A stretch of 64,000 nt of DNA from assembly GCA_965223295.1 (NCBI GenBank), contig CBDCWC010000002.1:1152001-1216000 (forward strand), read 5' to 3'. The stretch comes from Nitrospirales bacterium. GTDB lineage: Bacteria; Nitrospirota; Nitrospiria; Nitrospirales; UBA8639. Below are positions 35,847-44,024 of this stretch, in pieces; positions within the stretch are counted from its first letter, which is position 1; each line of letters starts with the position of its first letter. The notes below the pieces were generated by a model, which was not told the DNA's origin, did not search any database, and worked only from the letters and a program-made list of their open reading frames with translations. A program made the position numbers and the translations under genes.

Positions 35847-38057
35847 TTAGAATTCTTCAAAAAAGTCGTCATCCGCTTGGCGCCGATTATGGCCATTGCT
35901 ACTCCCCACCCCAGCTAACTGCGGGGCTGGTTGGGGCACTGCCTTCACTGGCATGGGAGGCTTGATCACCTCACTCGCAGGTTTTGGCGCCGGGATCGAT
36001 GGGCCTAGGCCCGGTCGACAGCTACCATTGCCTCCTGTCGTCACCTTGAAAAACGCGACTTGCTCCAACAAGCCTGCAGCTTGCTGTTTCATGGACTGCG
36101 AAGCTGACGTGGCTTCTTCCACCAACGCCGCGTTCTGTTGCGTCCCCTGATCCATTTGCATCACGGCCTTATTCACCTGATCGATCCCACTGGCCTGCTC
36201 TTGCGAAGCCGCGCTGATCTCCGCAATGATGTCTGTTACCCGCTTGACAGAATTGACAATTTCATCCAACGTTTGGCCCGATTGATTCACTAACTCACTG
36301 CCGTCTCCCACTTTCTGCACCGATTCGTTGATCAAAGACTTAATTTCTTTGGCCGCAGTGGCAGAACGTTGAGCTAAATTGCGGACTTCCGACGCTACAA
36401 CCGCAAAGCCACGCCCCTGTTCTCCTGCTCGTGCGGCTTCTACCGCTGCATTCAAAGCAAGGAGATTTGTCTGAAAGGCAATTTCATCAATCACGTTAAT
36501 AATGTCCGCAATTTTCTTACTGCTGTTGTTGATTTCATCCATGGCCCCAACAGCTTTATCTGTGACTGCCCCACCTTTCTCTGCGACTTCCCGTGCCATC
36601 ACCGCCAGCTGATTGGCTTGTTTGGCATTATCAGCATTTTGTTTAATGGTGGAGGTCATTTCTTCCATCGAGGCACTGGTTTCTTCTAATGCCCCTGCTT
36701 GTGCCGAGGTTCGTTGGGAGAGATCTTCATTGCCTTGAGTAATTTCGGCTGAAGCCGTAGACACATGTTCAGCCGCTTGCCGGACTTTGCCAACCACCCC
36801 AGAAATATTATCCAACATGGCGTTCATAGCTTGGCCAAGTTGGCCTAACTCATCCTGGCTTGTCATGGTGGCCCGCTGAGTTAAGTCGCCGTCGGCTGCT
36901 TGTTGCGCGATATTACTGATCGCCACCAGGTTTCCAGCCCCTCGACGCCCAACCCACCAGCCTAGGGGAAGTAGCACCGCTAAGCAGATTAAACCGGTCA
37001 TGAGGACTTTGCTCTGGATTCCAAGAGCTTCGGCTACCGCTTCTTCTTCAGGTACCCGCACCAAAACTGACCAGTTCATACCCGGAAAACCTATGGCGCC
37101 TTGTAAATGGGTATAACCACCTACTTGGGTGATCCCTTTCCGCACATGGCGGCTAAACGCAAATCCTGATTCCCCTCGCACCGCCGCTTGGGCCACTTCC
37201 ACGCCTTTTTCGGCCAAGTTTAACTTCATCAGCACATCGAAATTTCGAACCACCTCTAGTGTGCCGGTCTTGCCAGGGTCATAGTCCACCAACACGCGGC
37301 CTTGACTATCTAAGACGGTTAACTCAGTACCCGGAAATCCCTGTTCTTTCAAATTGACATACACATCGGCAAACATTTGCTCGATCACACTAAAGTTCGT
37401 ACGATTGGTCCAATAGGCCACTACTCTGCCATTTTCGTCATAGACGGGCGTCGAGAAGCCCATTACCAACCCATCATTGCCTAACGCCTGCTTCACATCC
37501 GTATCAATATGTACATCTTCGATAAACGTGCCGGAGGAAATGTCATTGCCCGGCGCCGTAAAGGGCATCTTGGTCGTAAATTCGCCTACTTCCAAGGCCT
37601 TAAACCAGGCCGTCTCCTTGAAGTTTTTCTCAAACAAAAATTTGGAGTCGATCGGCTCTCCTTGCGCGTTCTGAAAGTTCACCGCAATGAGTTGACCTGC
37701 CGGATCAACAAGCATGGCCAAGTCATAAATGCCATACGCCACCACATATTTATTCATGACCTGACTGACCACGTTATATTCCGTGGGGTCATACCACTGT
37801 GACGTACGCGTGATCGCATCGTTATAGCCAAACGCTTGGACATCGCCATAGCGCTCAAAGAGATTGCGATCAATTTTTTCGGCTAACCCCTTGGCTTCTG
37901 ACTGGAACCGGGCGCCGACCTTGGCTTTCATGTCTTCGGCAGCCCCGAAGGCAATGAGGCCCACCGCAGTCATGGGAATGGCTCCGAAAATGACAAACAA
38001 AGCGACTAACTTCCCTGTGATGCCTAAACTTAGGAAACTTTTTTTTACACTGTTCAT
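35847..38057 (-). CDS. MCP with Cache-like sensor and C-terminal pentapeptide FFEEF
   Basis: [12 protein letters not shown] sensor, HAMP, Tar-like signalling domain, tail DDDFFEEF. Confidence 0.93.
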
Positions 38058-38201
38058 GATTCCTTCATCCTTGGCTTAATGTTTGTTGAGCATGTCTTGA
38101 GACAGTGGCACTCGACTCATATCTAATCCACATCTTGCCTAACTTATTGACATCTCACTCTCTTGTTCGTTTCCACATAAGTTTTTTATTGTCTCTTTAC
38201 T

Positions 38202-38741
38202 CTATGCAGTCCCTTCGACGCTTTCTGGATCCATCGGAATCTCGCCGACCGTTTTGACTTCCTCATCTGTTAATACTCGATCAATATCTAAGAGCGTCAC
38301 AAGGTGATCATTGGAGTTCCCAATTCCTGCTACAAAGGTGGTATCGACCGAACTTCCCAATTCCGGAGGAGGCTGAATGTCTTTCGCGTTCAAATCCAAT
38401 ACATCGGATACGGCATCGACTAAAAATCCCATCACTCGATTTCGGACATTCACAACTACCACAACTGTAAAAGAGGTCGGCTCGGTGACTCCCATGCCAA
38501 ATTTCAACCGGAGGTCCACAATTGGAACAATGGTGCCTCGCAAGTTCAGGACCCCTTTGAGATACTCCGGTGTATTCGGGATTTTTGTGACATTGGTATA
38601 GCCTTTAATTTCTTGAACTTTTAATATGTCTACGCCATAGAATTCACCTGCCAGATTAAAGGTCAGGTACTGTTGCCCATCACTGGAATAGGTCGTTTGA
38701 ATATCTGCTTGCTCGCTCGGTTCAATGGTTGCCGTGGTCAT
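38202..38741 (-). CDS. cheW: CheW (system 3)
   Basis: YGVDILKVQEIKGY, GVLNLRGTIVPIVDLR, VDAVSDV. Confidence 0.96.
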   Translation of the reverse strand: MTTATIEPSEQADIQTTYSSDGQQYLTFNLAGEFYGVDILKVQEIKGYTNVTKIPNTPEYLKGVLNLRGTIVPIVDLRLKFGMGVTEPTSFTVVVVVNVRNRVMGFLVDAVSDVLDLNAKDIQPPPELGSSVDTTFVAGIGNSNDHLVTLLDIDRVLTDEEVKTVGEIPMDPESVEGTA

Positions 38742-38800
38742 AATTGCTCTCCTTCTTTATGTACGTCATCAATAGCATCCTCATCTTTTACAGTTTCCTT

Positions 38801-38923
38801 GGTAAGGAGTCAGGAGTAAGGCGAAAAAACCCAATTACTTTCTCTCATACCCTATATACTCTTTTTCTTATACCCCTTACTCTTTTTACTCCTTACTTTT
38901 GTACTTCTTACTTTTCACTTCTT
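38801..38923. repeat. Heptamer inverted-repeat element (cheA|cheW)
   Basis: GGTAAGG AGTCAGG AGTAAGG CGAAAAA ... ACCCCTT ... ACTCCTT ... ACTTCTT ACTTTTC ACTTCTT. Confidence 0.85.
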
Positions 38924-38925
38924 CG

Positions 38926-41022
38926 TCATGCGGCGGCGGTATGGCCCGCTCGAGCCAGTTTTGCCAATCCAGACACATCTAAAATAAGTGCTACCTGCCC
39001 ATCACCCAAAATAGTTGCCCCGGAAATCGCATCAATTTTTCGATAGTTTTCTTCTAAACTTTTAATCACGACCTGTTGTTGTCCCGTCAACTCATCCACT
39101 AAGACGGCCAGACGACGTCCTTCGGCTTCTACGATGACCAGTAAGGCCTTCGAAGGATCACTGAAATCTGGTGTGGTATTGAACACTTCGTAAAGCCGAA
39201 CCACTGGAACCCATTCTCCTCGTAAGTGAACAACTTCGCCTTTCCCAACAACACGTTGTAATTCACTAGATTTCGGTCGAATGGACTCCGTCACCGTAAT
39301 AAGAGGAATGATATAATTTTCCGCTCCAACGCGAACCGTCATTCCATCGATAATAGCCAAGGTCAGAGGCAACTTGAGTGTCAGTTTCGAACCCTTTCCT
39401 AAGGTGCTTTCAATGGTAACCGATCCTCCAAGACCTTCGATATTTCGCTTCACGACGTCCATCCCCACCCCCCGACCGGAGACATCGGTTATGGTATCAG
39501 CGGTGGAGAACCCGGCCCGAAAGATCAATTGATAGACATCTTCATCACTCATATTGGTCCCATCTGCAATCAATCCACGCTCAACAGCTTTTTTGATTAT
39601 TTTATCTCGATTGATACCCCGGCCATCATCCTCCACCGCAATACAGATATTGCCTCCGTCATGGTAGGCATGTAGCCGAATGGTTCCACGTTCGGGTTTG
39701 CCCGCATTTATGCGCTCCTCCGGTCCTTCCAACCCATGATCCGTCGAATTGCGAACTAAGTGAGTCAGCGGATCACCAATGGCTTCAATCAATGTTTTAT
39801 CCAATTCCGTTTCCTCACCAGACATCACCAACTGAATCTGTTTGCCGCTCTTTCCAGAGAGATCCCGCACTAGACGCGGGAAACGATGAAAGGCGGATCC
39901 GATCGGCATCATCCGAATAGACATGACACGTTCTTGTAATTCCCGGGTATTGCGCTCGAGCTGTACAATACGTTCTTGAAGAACCGGCAATTGATCCATC
40001 GTAAACTTTTCGCCAAGATCCGTGATCATGGATTGCGTAATCACCAACTCACCAACCAAATTGATGAGTTTGTCTATCTTTTCGGTATCTACACGAATGG
40101 ACGCCGCCTCACCTTTTTTCAATTGTTTCTGCTTTTGCAAGGCTTTATCCACTTGCTGTGGCGTCGCCTTTTTTTCTTCGACTAAAATTTCTCCTAGCGG
40201 TTTTTGCTTGGCCAAACCATCGGATATTTCTCCCGAGGTAACGATGCCTTCTTCAAGCAGTATTTCCCCTACCCGTTTATAGGGTTCAGCTTGTTTCGGT
40301 GCACAGTCCGTAATTGTCAATTCACTCCCGTCTCGTACAAAATCAAATACCGTGTCGACCTCACTTACCGCAGCATCAGTCTCCAGTTCAATTGCCCAAC
40401 TCAGATAACATTGCTCAGGATCCATAGCCTCTAACGGGGGAATTTTATCAGTGTGGACTTGTAAAACTTTGATCGATCCTAAATCATGTAGTTCTTTAAA
40501 AATTTGCGCGGGATCTAAGCCTCGCTGAAAGAGTTCAGGCAACGGCACCCAATCAATTTTTATTAGGCGCCATGGATTTGCTGAGGATGTAGGAACCGCT
40601 AGCGTTTCTGGAGCTGTCTCCTGTTGCACTTGTGAGCCATCCTGACAAGCCTGTAATTCTTGCTCAACCACCTGAATCACCTCTTCGTCTGCATCAGCAC
40701 CACCCTGTGCGGCCTCTAGGAGACTTTTCAACCCATCAAGGGCCCGCAACAACACATCGATCACATGAGGCGTCACAGGCATTTGCTCATTACGGAGAAG
40801 ATCCAACACATTCTCCATTTTATGCGTAAGACCTCCAATGGCCGCAAAATTGAACATCCCCGCATTGCCTTTGATCGAGTGCGCCGCCCGAAAGATTCGG
40901 TTCAATAAATCTAAGTCTTGTGGACGCTGCTCCAGCTCTAAGAGCCCTGACTCTATGGTTTCCACATGCTCAGCAGACTCAGTAAAAAACGACTCTTGGA
41001 ATTGAGATAAATCAACAGCCAT
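38926..41022 (-). CDS. cheA: CheA (system 3); start probably ATG 41022
   Basis: IFRAAHSIKG, P2-like domain, HLVRNSTDHG, SGRGVGMDVV, CheW domain. Confidence 0.96.
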   Translation of the reverse strand: MAVDLSQFQESFFTESAEHVETIESGLLELEQRPQDLDLLNRIFRAAHSIKGNAGMFNFAAIGGLTHKMENVLDLLRNEQMPVTPHVIDVLLRALDGLKSLLEAAQGGADADEEVIQVVEQELQACQDGSQVQQETAPETLAVPTSSANPWRLIKIDWVPLPELFQRGLDPAQIFKELHDLGSIKVLQVHTDKIPPLEAMDPEQCYLSWAIELETDAAVSEVDTVFDFVRDGSELTITDCAPKQAEPYKRVGEILLEEGIVTSGEISDGLAKQKPLGEILVEEKKATPQQVDKALQKQKQLKKGEAASIRVDTEKIDKLINLVGELVITQSMITDLGEKFTMDQLPVLQERIVQLERNTRELQERVMSIRMMPIGSAFHRFPRLVRDLSGKSGKQIQLVMSGEETELDKTLIEAIGDPLTHLVRNSTDHGLEGPEERINAGKPERGTIRLHAYHDGGNICIAVEDDGRGINRDKIIKKAVERGLIADGTNMSDEDVYQLIFRAGFSTADTITDVSGRGVGMDVVKRNIEGLGGSVTIESTLGKGSKLTLKLPLTLAIIDGMTVRVGAENYIIPLITVTESIRPKSSELQRVVGKGEVVHLRGEWVPVVRLYEVFNTTPDFSDPSKALLVIVEAEGRRLAVLVDELTGQQQVVIKSLEENYRKIDAISGATILGDGQVALILDVSGLAKLARAGHTAAA

Positions 41023-41034
41023 GAGGTACCTCAT

Positions 41035-41093
41035 TGAAAGTAAAAAGAGAGAAAGGAGAAGGGAGAAGTAGGGAGAAAGGAGGGAGAAAACCC
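41035..41093. repeat. Purine heptamer arm on one flank of the four-helix-bundle gene
   Basis: AGTAAAA AGAGAGA AAGGAGA AGGGAGA AGTAGGG AGAAAGG AGGGAGA AAACCC. Confidence 0.8.
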
Positions 41094-41109
41094 AGGGCGA
41101 ATAGCTCGA

Positions 41110-41475
41110 TCACTTTTGCCTCTCTTTCTGATGGCGAATAAGCCCACTGATCATCTTGTCAACTTCAACCATATTTTTATCAATGAACTCCCATTTCATT
41201 TCAGGGATGTAGCCCAGCCGTTTAGCTAATTCCAGTTGTGTGTCCAATTCACTCAAGGAACCTTTCGCTACATACAAAAACTGAGTGAATTCGTTTTTGC
41301 TCCGGCGACTGGCTCCTTCTGCTATGTTACTGGGAATACTCACCACTGCCCTTCGAATTTGGCTTGTCAATCCATAGCTTTCAAAAGCCGGAAACTTTTT
41401 TGTGATTTCATACACGTTTAACACCAAATCTATTGCCCCCTGCCATGCATTTAATTTTTTATGAAGTTTCTCCAC
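41110..41475 (-). CDS. Four-helix-bundle protein (23S rRNA intervening-sequence protein / Avd-like family)
   Basis: L.AWQ.A..L...VY.IT..FP..E.YGLTSQIRRA.VSIPSNIAEG..R.S..EF..FL..AKGSLSELDTQL..A..LGY family signature; GTG start. Confidence 0.92.
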   Translation of the reverse strand: MEKLHKKLNAWQGAIDLVLNVYEITKKFPAFESYGLTSQIRRAVVSIPSNIAEGASRRSKNEFTQFLYVAKGSLSELDTQLELAKRLGYIPEMKWEFIDKNMVEVDKMISGLIRHQKERQK

Positions 41476-41481
41476 AAAAAT

Positions 41482-41626
41482 AGCAAGAAGTTAGATGTGA
41501 GAAGAGAGACGCAAGAAGAGGAGATACTCTGACTCTTCTTTTCCTCTAATCTCCCATCTGACAACCTGTACTTCTTCCATCTCAAATCTCACTTTGTGCG
41601 CTTCTCACTTCTTCCTTTTCACTTTT
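41482..41626. repeat. Heptamer hairpin plus an extra pyrimidine arm on the other flank of the four-helix-bundle gene
   Basis: AGCAAGA AGTTAGA TGTGAGA AGAGAGA CGCAAGA ... CTCTTCTT ... TCTCCCATCTGA ... CTTCTC ACTTCTT CCTTTTC ACTTTTT. Confidence 0.8.
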
Positions 41627-41998
41627 TCATCCTGGCAAGACTTTTTTGATGGTGGCCAGCATTTGTTCTGGATTAAATGGTTTCACCACCCATCCCGTCG
41701 CTCCCGCGCTTTGTCCTTCTTTCTTTTTCGCATCTGATGACTCAGTTGTCAGCATGAGGATCGGCGTAAACTTATGCGCCGCCATGCCACGAACGGCTTT
41801 TATGAGGGATATGCCATCCATATTGGGCATATTCAGATCAGTAATTACGAGATTGGGCTTGGCTCCACCATTTAACTTGTCGACGGCTTCTTTTCCGTCG
41901 CCGGCCTCAACGACCTCATACCCAGCTCCGGTGAGTGTGAAATTCACCATTTGCCGCATGGAAACGGAATCATCAACTACTAGTACGGTCTTGCCCAT
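41627..41998 (-). CDS. cheY: CheY (system 3)
   Basis: VLVVDDSVSMRQMV, TDLNMPNMDG, MLTTES, GWVVKPF. Confidence 0.95.
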   Translation of the reverse strand: MGKTVLVVDDSVSMRQMVNFTLTGAGYEVVEAGDGKEAVDKLNGGAKPNLVITDLNMPNMDGISLIKAVRGMAAHKFTPILMLTTESSDAKKKEGQSAGATGWVVKPFNPEQMLATIKKVLPG

Positions 41999-42067
41999 GA
42001 TTATCCCTCTCTGTTGTCGGGTTACTTGGATATCGCCTTGCGCAATTCATCTTTGACATTTCGTTCC

Positions 42068-42176
42068 AGTAAGGAGTCGGGAAAAAGGGACTAGGAGAAA
42101 AACCCTTTGCAGGGTTTCCCTCTTCTCAGTTCCCATTCTTCACTCCTTACGGCTCACTCCTTACTTTTTCCTTCTC
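42068..42176. repeat. Heptamer inverted-repeat element (MCP-like|cheY)
   Basis: AGTAAGG AGTCGGG AAAAAGG GACTAGG, inner hairpin AAACCCT-TTGC-AGGGTTT, then TCTTCTC AGTTCCC ATTCTTC ACTCCTT ACGGCTC ACTCCTT ACTTTTT CCTTCTC. Confidence 0.88.
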
Positions 42177-42183
42177 ATCGCAA

Positions 42184-43326
42184 TCAGAACAAGGTCACAC
42201 TATCGCCTTCTTCGGTATCACCTGTCGTCCCCACCATGATCGCTTCTTCTCCAGCATGCGCCGCTTCAATTGTCAGCCGCTCGGATTCCATTGTATAGCT
42301 ATGCTCAAGGGAGCGAAGTTCTCCAAGCACTTCAGGCAGCGTATCTGTGGTCTCGGAGGCTTCTACCACTGCTTGCAGAGGGGCATAGATACGTTCCAAT
42401 GGCTGATAAACATGCTCCAGCTTTTGTCGCGTAATATCTTGGAACTGCATAGACATCACAATTTGCCCAATATGTTCCCCAAGTTCTTTTGCCCGTCCAG
42501 AGTTTTGCCCCACACTTTCTTTCAGCGCTTCATTTTTTGCTACCATGACTTCGGTCATTTCCATAATTTTCTCTTGTGCTTTCAAGGTTTCCGTCAGATC
42601 TATGCTGGCCAGCACCTCGAGCTCAGACATGGCTGACTCCGTTGTACCTTTCACCGCTGTCGCCAAAGCGCGAATCTGTTCGGCCGCTTGCCCCGACCGA
42701 TTGGCTAACTTGGTGACTTCATCTGCAACAACGGCAAATCCTCGGCCATGTTCTCCTGCCCTTGCCGCTTCAATTGCGGCGTTCAAAGCTAACAATCGTG
42801 TTTGATCGGCGATAAATTCTACCTCCTCAACGACAGTTGATATCCGAGACGTCGTATCAACAGCTTCTTCCATCACGCCTACAGTCGAGACTGTGACCGT
42901 GGAGGTCTGAGTCACCTGATTCACAAACATTTGCATGGTATCTTTCGTTCTATTCAGAATAGCTTCCACGCTCATCTCATCGTCAGACCCACTCCCCTCA
43001 CCCATGCTTAAAATAGTCTCCGTTTCAAACGCAGATTCTCTCGCTTGTTGAGAAATTTTTTGAAACCGCTGAATTAACCCTGCCGAAGCCTGTTCTGTTT
43101 CTTGTATGACCGCTTTAAGTTGACCCACAAAAACGGGAAGCATCGGCGCCAAGCATGCACAAAATTCTTTCCAGTTTTTCTGGAACACGATAGCCTCCTG
43201 TTCCAGTTCCTGTTGAACGGTTGCATCAGCCGCGCTGTCAGGTTGTCGTGCTCGTTGCCCCACGATAAATCCGGCTCCACTCCCTACTATGAAGAATATT
43301 GCCCCTAACAACCAATCAATCACCAC
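42184..43326 (-). CDS. Short MCP-like protein (N-terminal TM, signalling hairpin, QFQDxxRQ, tail SVTLF)
   Basis: [52 protein letters not shown]. Confidence 0.85.
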
Positions 43327-43399
43327 ACGTCACCTCTTCTTCATTAATGCCGCATTACTCTGAAATGAACCTCATTCTCCATTCCATTTGGAATGCGTC

Positions 43400-43690
43400 C
43401 TATATGTTTGGAAGGAACTGTGCAAAGCCAATCTGTTCAAAACGATCTCGTATCTGCGAAGAATATCCTTTCAACGTCAAACGGCCCGACCGAGTGGCGG
43501 CCACGATAAGCTGGACGCAAGAGGAATCCATTCGATCGACTTCAGAAAAATCTAATTCTATCGGCCCTTCTTGTTTGTGAAGAAGATCCAGATCTTCATG
43601 GAATTGTGCTGCTTCAAAAATTGTCAAATCGCCAACTGGTTTTAAGACCGCATTGAAAGAAACTGCTTCGACCTCACTTCCACCGTCCAT
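43400..43690 (-). CDS. STAS-domain protein heading the system 3 operon
   Basis: GDLTIFEAA, LDFSEVDRMDSSCVQLI. Confidence 0.85.
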   Translation of the reverse strand: MDGGSEVEAVSFNAVLKPVGDLTIFEAAQFHEDLDLLHKQEGPIELDFSEVDRMDSSCVQLIVAATRSGRLTLKGYSSQIRDRFEQIGFAQFLPNI

Positions 43691-43784
43691 ATATACTCCT
43701 CATCGCTTTTTGAATGTATATGTTTGTATCTCCACTTTCACAGATGCAGCCATTCAATGCTGACCTAGAATAGGCCACACATTC

Positions 43785-43813
43785 TTCTCGGGAGAGAAAT
43801 ATCTGAACTTTAG
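43785..43813 (-). promoter_or_regulatory. Sigma28-like promoter of the system 3 operon
   Basis: Minus strand CTAAA-N16(GTTC...)-CCCGAGAA. Confidence 0.65.
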
Positions 43814-44024
43814 ACATCTTTCAAAAATTGGGATATTCAGATTTCGAGGTAAACTCAGAGCAACAAGAGATGAGCTTCAAAAGCATCACGGCTACCTACA
43901 GTTGCTGTTTCAACCTCCTTCAAACACTTGAGATTGACACTGCCTCTCCGAGTAGGATAGGCCAAACTGAAAAAGAGAAGAGAAAAGATAGACTTACTGT
44001 TCAAGAAAGACCGGAGCCTACAGC

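Follow-up and report, generated by a model that had tools for sequence, protein, structure and literature searches.

The cheY and cheA genes of a Nitrospirales genome (G000; 3.78 Mb in 3 contigs, 47% GC, completeness 100%) are separated by a 592-nt insert, which we interpret, with a probability of about 0.6, as one self-contained cassette: a gene of the four-helix-bundle family PF05635 bracketed by inverted arrays of tandem heptamers. The insert lies in a 64,000-nt stretch of this genome (G000:C2:1152001-1216000), referred to below as the window, and all coordinates are positions in it. The probability covers the best explanation as a whole, namely that the cassette is an element of the kind known from 23S rRNA as intervening sequences (IVS) with an open reading frame (ORF), that it resides here in an operon spacer, that its arms would form a looped-out stem cut by RNase III, and that its protein would bind heptamer arrays. 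The decisive support for this candidate cassette is the comparison across genomes, not the local fold. The parts of the cassette and its 2 host genes are as follows.

41998 to 41627, minus strand: cheY, the upstream host gene (PF00072 Response_reg, E 2.2e-26)
41629 to 41627, minus strand: TGA stop codon of cheY
41626 to 41601, minus strand: purine-type heptamer 5' outer arm, AAAAGTGAAAAGGAAGAAGTGAGAAG, pairing with 41061-41039
41600 to 41482, minus strand: inner 5' region with more purine heptamers and then their complement, holding the hairpin 41559-41497
41475 to 41110, minus strand: four-helix-bundle gene, GTG start, 121 aa (PF05635, E 1.7e-39)
41097 to 41036, minus strand: pyrimidine-type heptamer 3' arm, complementary to the 5' arm
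41034 to 38926 as the listed ORF, minus strand: cheA, the downstream host gene (Hpt, H-kinase_dim, HATPase_c and CheW domains)

A four-helix-bundle gene between inverted heptamer arrays

The insert stands in a minus-strand chemotaxis operon with the order methyl-accepting chemotaxis protein (MCP), cheY, 121-codon ORF, cheA, cheW and second MCP, in which cheY is 92% to 99% identical to its orthologues in the genus; among named relatives of the protein, the best came from metagenome-assembled genomes labelled Nitrospirales. As had been noted in a first-pass annotation made from the letters of the window, the gene interrupts the junction of cheY and cheA, is richer in A and T (41.3% GC) than the adjoining cheY (49.2%) and cheA (47.4%), and begins with a GTG before which the sequence contains no Shine-Dalgarno-like run. 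Its product matched PF05635 with 134.8 bits (cut-off 33.8) over profile positions 1 to 106 of 106, reached 130.2 bits against the full-length family model TIGR02436 (cut-off 24), and scored 141.4 bits against NF008911 (cut-off 137). By sequence match, the closest solved relative is PDB 2GSC (Xanthomonas XCC0516, 5 chains, E 9.7e-30), followed by PDB 2RLD (E 1e-6), and a homopentamer ring has been stated for the S23p family (PMC4990558, cited here and below for parts of its text). PF05635 and bAvd were the only families matched by the ORF, with no HUH (Y1) transposase, and G000 carries a single PF05635 copy. The dN/dS ratio of the protein was 0.18 and 0.13 in 2 unsaturated pairs, compared with 0.02 to 0.03 for cheY, which shows that the protein is under purifying selection and, therefore, that the product of intact copies is put to use.

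Avd, the accessory protein of diversity-generating retroelements, assembles into a pentamer, and its binding partners are nucleic acid and an enzyme. Its four-helix-bundle fold is related to that of the cassette protein (PMC10053308, cited for part of its text), and the ORF gave weak matches to bAvd (PF22296, 31.5 bits) and DivGenRetAVD (NF033474, 34.8 bits). It is nevertheless extremely unlikely that the gene is an Avd remnant of such a retroelement, as both scores lie below the respective cut-offs of 40 and 80 bits, no match to the RVT_1 reverse transcriptase was obtained in the 100%-complete G000, and the position of the gene inside the che operon is conserved in the genus.

To place the locus among its relatives, 80 PF05635 loci were fetched by protein pattern, with one genome per species, from Bacteroidota, Acidobacteriota, Planctomycetota, Desulfobacterota, Proteobacteria, Clostridia, Ignavibacteriota, Patescibacteria and others. 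Two clean 150-nt flanks were available for 76 loci (L050 was left out of the counts because an N run covers most of its 5' flank), and 42 ORFs of the same loci served as controls. The first-pass annotation had suggested looking for inverted 7-nt arms around genes of this family elsewhere, and such arms were found: among lags of 5 to 10 nt, lag 7 scored best in 64/76 upstream and 68/76 downstream flanks, compared with 12% and 9.5% of the controls. The median inverted-repeat score was 18.75 against 7.75 for the controls, with 48 of the 76 loci above the controls' 99th percentile. Cognate arms scored 18.75 and non-cognate arms 7.5, and a same-strand control exceeded the non-cognate 99th percentile in only 7/76 loci. 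Reverse complementarity between the upstream and the downstream word extended to 7/7 positions in 15 loci and to 6/7 in a further 23 (38/76). When the period was called by summed score, it was 7 in 72 of 78 loci, 8 in five and 6 in one. Cassettes with period 8 in both arms were seen at L049, L057, L101, L109 and L120; that these form one protein clade was rejected, their identities being 44% to 56%.

The same design was recognized at closer range. In related genera of the same order, 9/9 PF05635 loci outside the che junction had a 5' flank complementary to the 3' flank when judged by eye, and 8 of these 9 were tandem heptamer arrays, with the words GTTTCAN, GGTCTNN, CTGGTTN, GGCTTAT, GGCAGAT, CGTTAAN (twice) and TTCAGTN. 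Five genomes with 2 to 9 copies each provided 24 paralogous loci, of which 23 were analyzed (one was too short). Judged again by eye, each of the 23 had a pair of arms of its own, and most had their own word and matching arms; one pair had a common word, and a few loci showed weak arms or another period. Of the protein pairs that are at least 70% identical, most of which are orthologous loci, 57% share 6/7 word positions, whereas only 1% to 4% of pairs below 55% identity do. The same word also accompanied the gene in unrelated surroundings, at L067/L072 and, across phyla, at L072/L083. In 2 loci, L031 (G019) and L032 (G029), a common conserved stretch, CACTGTAAGTGAGAGGGCGAAGCTGT, stands just before the 5' array, approximately 100 to 130 nt upstream of the ORF; both also have a local array hairpin upstream of the gene, like 41559-41497.

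The neighbours of the gene were frequently in its own orientation (the upstream one in 63/77 loci, both in 49/72) and close to it, with median gaps of 73 and 67 nt; the sites include nuoE/nuoF (L039) and cheR/cheD (L030, an intact copy of G025 between an apparent cheR and cheD). Read inward, the word contained a stop triplet in 47/76 loci for the 5' arm and in 45/76 for the 3' arm (on the other strand), compared with 26 and 29 of 76 when read outward and a chance expectation of 35%. Altogether, these results show that the heptamer-armed design is a hallmark of the PF05635 family across phyla. The gene-in-stem unit mostly inhabits ordinary operon spacers and has inverted arrays of 7-nt period, each with its own and often stop-bearing word. 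This ties a large protein family to the heptamer repeats of bacteria, and offers a handle on the function of PF05635, on the abundance of bacterial heptamer arrays, and on how inserts can be harmless in coupled operons (che, nuo, nif, pro).

Gain, exchange and loss of the cassette at the cheY-cheA junction

The state of the cheY-cheA junction was known for 30 genomes of the genus, in 19 of which it was filled, in 3 held a relic and in 8 was empty. The copy was intact in 10 genomes (G000, G016, G001, G012, G015, G003, G002, G046, G033 and G041); G049 and G047, the latter with a third, divergent type, were also filled. Seven filled junctions had stops or were degraded (G006, G018, G040, G007, G008, G032 and G048), and the relics of G011, G044 and G051 were badly eroded. 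Empty junctions occurred in G004, G009, G014, G017, G036, G037, G039 and G052, as well as in 3 outgroup genomes. Relatives with an empty junction, which had been proposed as a check on the insert, thus exist: in the basal species and in the outgroup family the gene-less junctions measure 54 to 110 nt, and those of the outgroup hold gene-less hairpins. In the CheA tree, the empty genomes G004, G009 and G014 are basal, which indicates that the cassette was gained within the genus (in a first tree the row of G019 was a wrong ORF on a long branch and was ignored; it was left out of the second tree). The junctions of G036, G039 and G037, only 36 to 37 nt long, retain the last ~20 nt of the 3' arm and nothing else of the cassette, from which we conclude that it was deleted there.

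Two main types of cassette were distinguished, type A with RGTRARR-type arms and type B with CGTRARR-type arms, whose proteins are ~57% identical and which are interleaved among species with nearly identical CheA. Between G040 (type A) and G018 (type B), identity is 93.7% as far as the stop codon of cheY and 94.8% from the start of cheA onward, but the ~576 nt inside these borders cannot be aligned. Same-type pairs, on the other hand, are alike throughout (G040/G032, type A, 92.8%; G041/G018, type B, 96.3%). Hence, the cassette behaves as a single, sharply bordered unit that is exchanged or is maintained as a polymorphism, and within the genus it decays and is deleted repeatedly. With its filled, empty, relic and deleted junctions and 2 types exchanged exactly at the borders, the genus amounts to a natural experiment. 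In the type-B loci L004 (G001) and L007 (G015), the ORF continues through the 3' arm to a stop just before cheA, giving a product of 140 aa instead of ~120.

A search of sequencing runs for the stretch returned no RNA run; its four matches are contigs of one study. In same-sample contigs diverged by ~5%, exact +7-nt insertions were present in the 5' arm, behind 41607 and 41613, so that the arms change in steps of one heptamer. A gene-less allele was seen in none of the contigs, although contigs drop rare variants and absence is therefore not shown. One same-sample contig diverges completely upstream of cheA at 41023 and has a different 3' arm (TTTCACTCCTTAC...).

Pairing of the arms and a possible course of events on the mRNA

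The coordinates and letters given for the locus in the first-pass annotation were all correct, and its pairing of the 23-mers 41623-41601 and 41061-41039 at 21 of 23 positions was reproduced, with 3 G-U pairs and -21.1 kcal/mol. The minimum free energy (MFE) fold of 41630-41030 closed this outer stem with a z-score of -2.1, none of 20 shuffles folding as well, and the second heptamer hairpin that had been placed in the loop was found just upstream of the ORF, at 41559-41497 (MFE -19.0 kcal/mol). In the 64 kb, the ungapped 23-nt windows that pair as well with the 5' 23-mer numbered only 2 on the minus and 4 on the plus strand. Genome-wide, approximately 16% of purine/pyrimidine tract pairs lying at most 2 kb apart reached -18 kcal/mol, and tract pairing alone was for this reason rejected as a definition of the element. 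The local stem taken alone is weak evidence because arms of such low complexity find other tracts with which they pair about equally well, a caveat that had been raised together with the stem and that our results confirmed; the local fold does not settle the matter.

Several observations weigh against the IVS-like explanation. The 65-nt tract 41033-41097 has 2 other partners with which its duplex is just as stable, one inside cheY (41701-41736, -34.8 kcal/mol) and the other at 42114-42181 (-34.3 kcal/mol). Across the genus, the reversed 3' arm still averaged -35.7 kcal/mol compared with -49.3 kcal/mol for the true arm, and cognate arms paired no better than same-type arms of other genomes (-49.3 versus -49.1 kcal/mol). 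The inner 5' region is an alternative partner for the 5' arm, and the outer stem has a competitor in the inner hairpin 41559-41497. Among the che orthologues, no fine-scale covariation of the arms was found below the level of cassette type. A stop triplet is present in the word of ~60% of loci, not of all, and the co-orientation of neighbours is only modestly above that usual for adjacent bacterial genes. In addition, the arm mismatches of 59 loci comprised 91 G-U and 110 A-C, that is, no wobble excess, and by locus the balance went one way in 20 and the other way in 21. An RNA stem under selection should show a G-U excess, so the arm complementarity looks like symmetry at the DNA level and not like selected RNA pairing. 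It seems to be kept by a DNA-level process, for example slippage of units with copying between the arms, or the symmetry of binding sites. Of the proposal that the insert is an intervening element of the mRNA, then, the architecture stood, since it matches that of ORF-bearing 23S IVS, while a G-U excess was lacking.

Two orientation-dependent features do point to the mRNA. One is that the cassettes occupy short spacers and are co-directional with their host genes, and the other is the bias of stop triplets toward the inward reading. On this basis, the following course of events can be proposed for the cheY-cheA locus. The cassette, which leaves no space for its own promoter, would be transcribed with the che operon. 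Ribosomes arriving from cheY would be halted in every frame by the stop-bearing heptamers of the 5' arm; as 7 is not a multiple of 3, three heptamer units close all three frames, and the TGA triplets of the 5' arm together with the cheY stop indeed do so within 25 nt. The arms would then pair and loop out ~540 nt, placing the ribosome-binding site of cheA beside the cheY stop. The true cheA start is likely the ATG at 41022 (MAVDLS...), with GAGG at 41031-41028 as the ribosome-binding site, rather than 41034, because the orthologues begin at MAVDL; with this start, the GAGG abuts the end of the 3' arm. The double-stranded stem would be cut by RNase III, as in rRNA, so that the host tolerates the insert. 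We infer such an excision at the cheY-cheA locus by analogy, and an RNase III gene is present in G000. Finally, the pentamer-forming protein would bind heptamer arrays, both in its own arms and in gene-less hairpins, which is our best guess at its role.

Gene-less heptamer arrays and related systems

Heptamer hairpins are not restricted to the cassette. Every spacer of the G000 che operon holds one, and G000 has many intergenic hairpins of the cassette's word family, including those in the 2 other che spacers, which are listed here with the remaining genes.

43326 to 42184, minus strand: MCP, first gene of the che stretch
42181 to 42068, strand not assigned: gene-less heptamer hairpin in the MCP-cheY spacer, same word family, MFE -38.2 kcal/mol
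38924 to 38802, strand not assigned: gene-less heptamer hairpin in the cheA-cheW spacer, same word family
38741 to 38202, minus strand: cheW

Such hairpins raise the question of an ordinary operon spacer, in which they would be generic intercistronic stabilizers or attenuators and the gene an unrelated passenger in the loop of one of them. The hairpins in every che spacer of G000, the gene-less hairpins at the outgroup junctions and the promiscuous pairing of low-complexity arms all agree with this. We consider it very unlikely, however, because PF05635 genes carry their own cognate arms in unrelated phyla and at every paralogue, and a chance landing cannot explain a gene in a hairpin under these circumstances; moreover, the basal species that have no gene at the junction also have no hairpins or arrays in the other 2 che spacers.

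G000 contains 61 double-heptamer clusters of the GTRARR type and 24 triple arrays of GTRARRN, of which lags 6 and 8 gave none. A census of G000 hairpins by a strict pattern was abandoned as too strict, since both arms matched in only 9 of the 61 clusters. Triple arrays were counted in 41 genomes of this genus. Where an intact, high-scoring copy was present (13 genomes), 12 had 9 to 112 arrays and the other (G041) had 2, and 9/9 genomes without a copy and with a completeness of 90% or more had 0 to 7. Seven che-junction copies with stops or degradation and three relics fall in one subclade, the whole of which has 0 to 4 arrays. There are exceptions to the general pattern: G006 has a stop and 47 arrays; G052 has 132 arrays, an empty che junction and a divergent copy elsewhere; G028 has arrays and no copy was found in it, and four incomplete genomes in which no copy was found have 15 to 33 arrays. 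The arm word is also the word of gene-less hairpins in the outgroup G025 and in a Pirellulaceae genome (43 matches in ~11 loci; reversed control, 0). That the protein serves the gene-less hairpins, as had been put forward in the first-pass annotation, is thus in keeping with arrays being abundant mainly alongside an intact copy, but the link is correlative: there are 4 well-supported independent contrasts, ~3 in the expected direction, 0 in the opposite one and ~1 tied (sign test, p 0.25). As the relatives are not independent and the contrasts only 4, we treat a partnership of gene and repeat as a lead suggested by these counts.

These data bear on a possible, though less than probable, alternative to the IVS-like cassette, namely a system that works at the DNA level, either one like REP/RAYT or a protein with dispersed binding sites, with RNA pairing of the arms being incidental. 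The arrays would then be the binding sites of the protein, or units that it maintains or spreads, and the gene would sit between two of them. This would accommodate the strand-symmetric arm complementarity described above, the single gene among 61 clusters and 24 triple arrays in G000, the common word of arms and gene-less hairpins in 3 genomes, the array counts with and without a copy, the clustering of damaged copies and relics in an array-poor subclade, and the recurrence of one word with the gene in unrelated contexts (L067/L072 and L072/L083); it would fit likewise with the inverted tandem-array pairs between adjacent genes of Geobacter metallireducens (PMC2700814, cited here and below for parts of its content). 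Against it stand a protein without a known catalytic fold, the small number of contrasts, the exceptions G041 (intact copy, 2 arrays), G006 and G028 together with the four incomplete genomes, the hairpin between MCP and cheY, which keeps its word when the cassette type changes, and the stop-codon bias of the word, whose dependence on orientation points to the mRNA. Genome-wide, the flavour of the array words (C-type or R-type) follows cassette type only partly, as G012 and G033 are type A and have approximately half C-type arrays. This and the behaviour of the MCP-cheY hairpin led us to give up the notion that a resident protein has the arrays changed to its own word.

A bolder extension, which we regard as unlikely at present, is that prokaryotic heptamer arrays have their trans-acting partner in the PF05635 pentamer, with each protein recognizing its own word and maintaining the hairpins or helping them to spread. 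It would amount, with equally low confidence, to a selfish system of the REPIN/RAYT kind built on a non-catalytic ring protein, in which the gene decays once arrays are lost and the reverse. If true, it would explain the IVS of rRNA, the size of the PF05635 family, and the predominance of heptanucleotides among the long simple repeats of prokaryotes. That heptanucleotides are the most frequent of these is reported in a paper on TAACTGA repeats (PMC4679880, cited for part of its text).

The element closest to the cassette in architecture is the 23S IVS. ORF-bearing IVS of rRNA have been known for ~30 years. In the IVS of Coxiella burnetii (helix 45) and Leptospira, as in the cassette, an S23p/PF05635 ORF lies in the loop of a stem made by terminal inverted repeats. 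The Coxiella IVS has a 28-bp stem at which RNase III cuts were mapped by rapid amplification of cDNA ends, and upstream of its S23p ORF lie tandem heptamers (GACAGAT) whose number varies between strains (PMC4990558). It shares with the cassette these upstream heptamers of variable number, a poor Shine-Dalgarno sequence, a decay-prone ORF and a size of 430 to 600 nt (PMC4990558). The cassette differs in its host, which is the spacer of a cheY-cheA mRNA and not rRNA (an Rfam scan of 38000-44000 at E up to 1 gave no rRNA match and only a chance match to mir-72), and in its long heptamer arrays on both sides. Excision by RNase III has been shown for the Coxiella IVS, whereas for the cassette it is a prediction, and the cassette protein is under purifying selection while that of Coxiella is reported as probably not made (PMC4990558).

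A second point of comparison is provided by repetitive extragenic palindromes (REP) and their doublets (REPIN). In these systems a single-copy gene for a REP-associated tyrosine transposase (RAYT) stands between oppositely oriented copies of a repeat, and further copies are scattered over intergenic spacers as hairpins. The cassette resembles them in that its single-copy gene lies between inverted arrays whose repeat recurs elsewhere in the genome, and the abundance of the repeat appears to go with the gene, a link that is not statistically secured (p 0.25). It differs in that the protein is a small four-helix bundle and not an HUH tyrosine transposase, and in that the repeat is a tandem 7-nt word that changes from cassette to cassette. 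With Avd of diversity-generating retroelements, the cassette protein has in common the fold, and differs in coming from a genome without a reverse transcriptase and in scoring below the Avd cut-offs.

In Geobacter metallireducens, tandem octa- or heptanucleotide arrays that form 24, 21 and 8 inverted pairs, each located between neighbouring genes, have been described and interpreted as sites of global regulators, with binding of the IHF/HU type (PMC2700814). These sites, found for instance in nifD/nifK and proB/proA, are like the arms of the cassette in being inverted pairs of 7- to 8-nt tandem repeats, and in a Geobacter relative of our sample PF05635 genes lie inside such pairs. The four-helix-bundle family is not mentioned in the main text of PMC2700814, nor is 'S23' in 12 of its supplementary files and file 15, files 13, 14 and 16 to 19 being outside this search. 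Insertion sequences of the IS110 and IS481 families adjoin many of the paired tandem-octamer sites (PMC2700814, file 15), which suggests that tandem-octamer arrays are insertion targets. In the literature covered, which excludes bioRxiv supplements and the same files 13, 14 and 16 to 19, no description of the general design of a gene plus inverted heptamers was found.

Two long che spacers carry other inserts. In the 497-nt MCP-cheY spacer of G012 (L006), the heptamer hairpin contains a different insert of ~300 nt, with one and the same GC-rich hairpin (GCCCCGCCCTTTGGGCGGGG) at either end; no PF05635 gene was seen there. The 412-nt cheA-cheW spacer of G025 (L018) has GTTTCAN/TGAAACN arms around a loop of ~300 nt without a recognized gene, and may be an eroded cassette.

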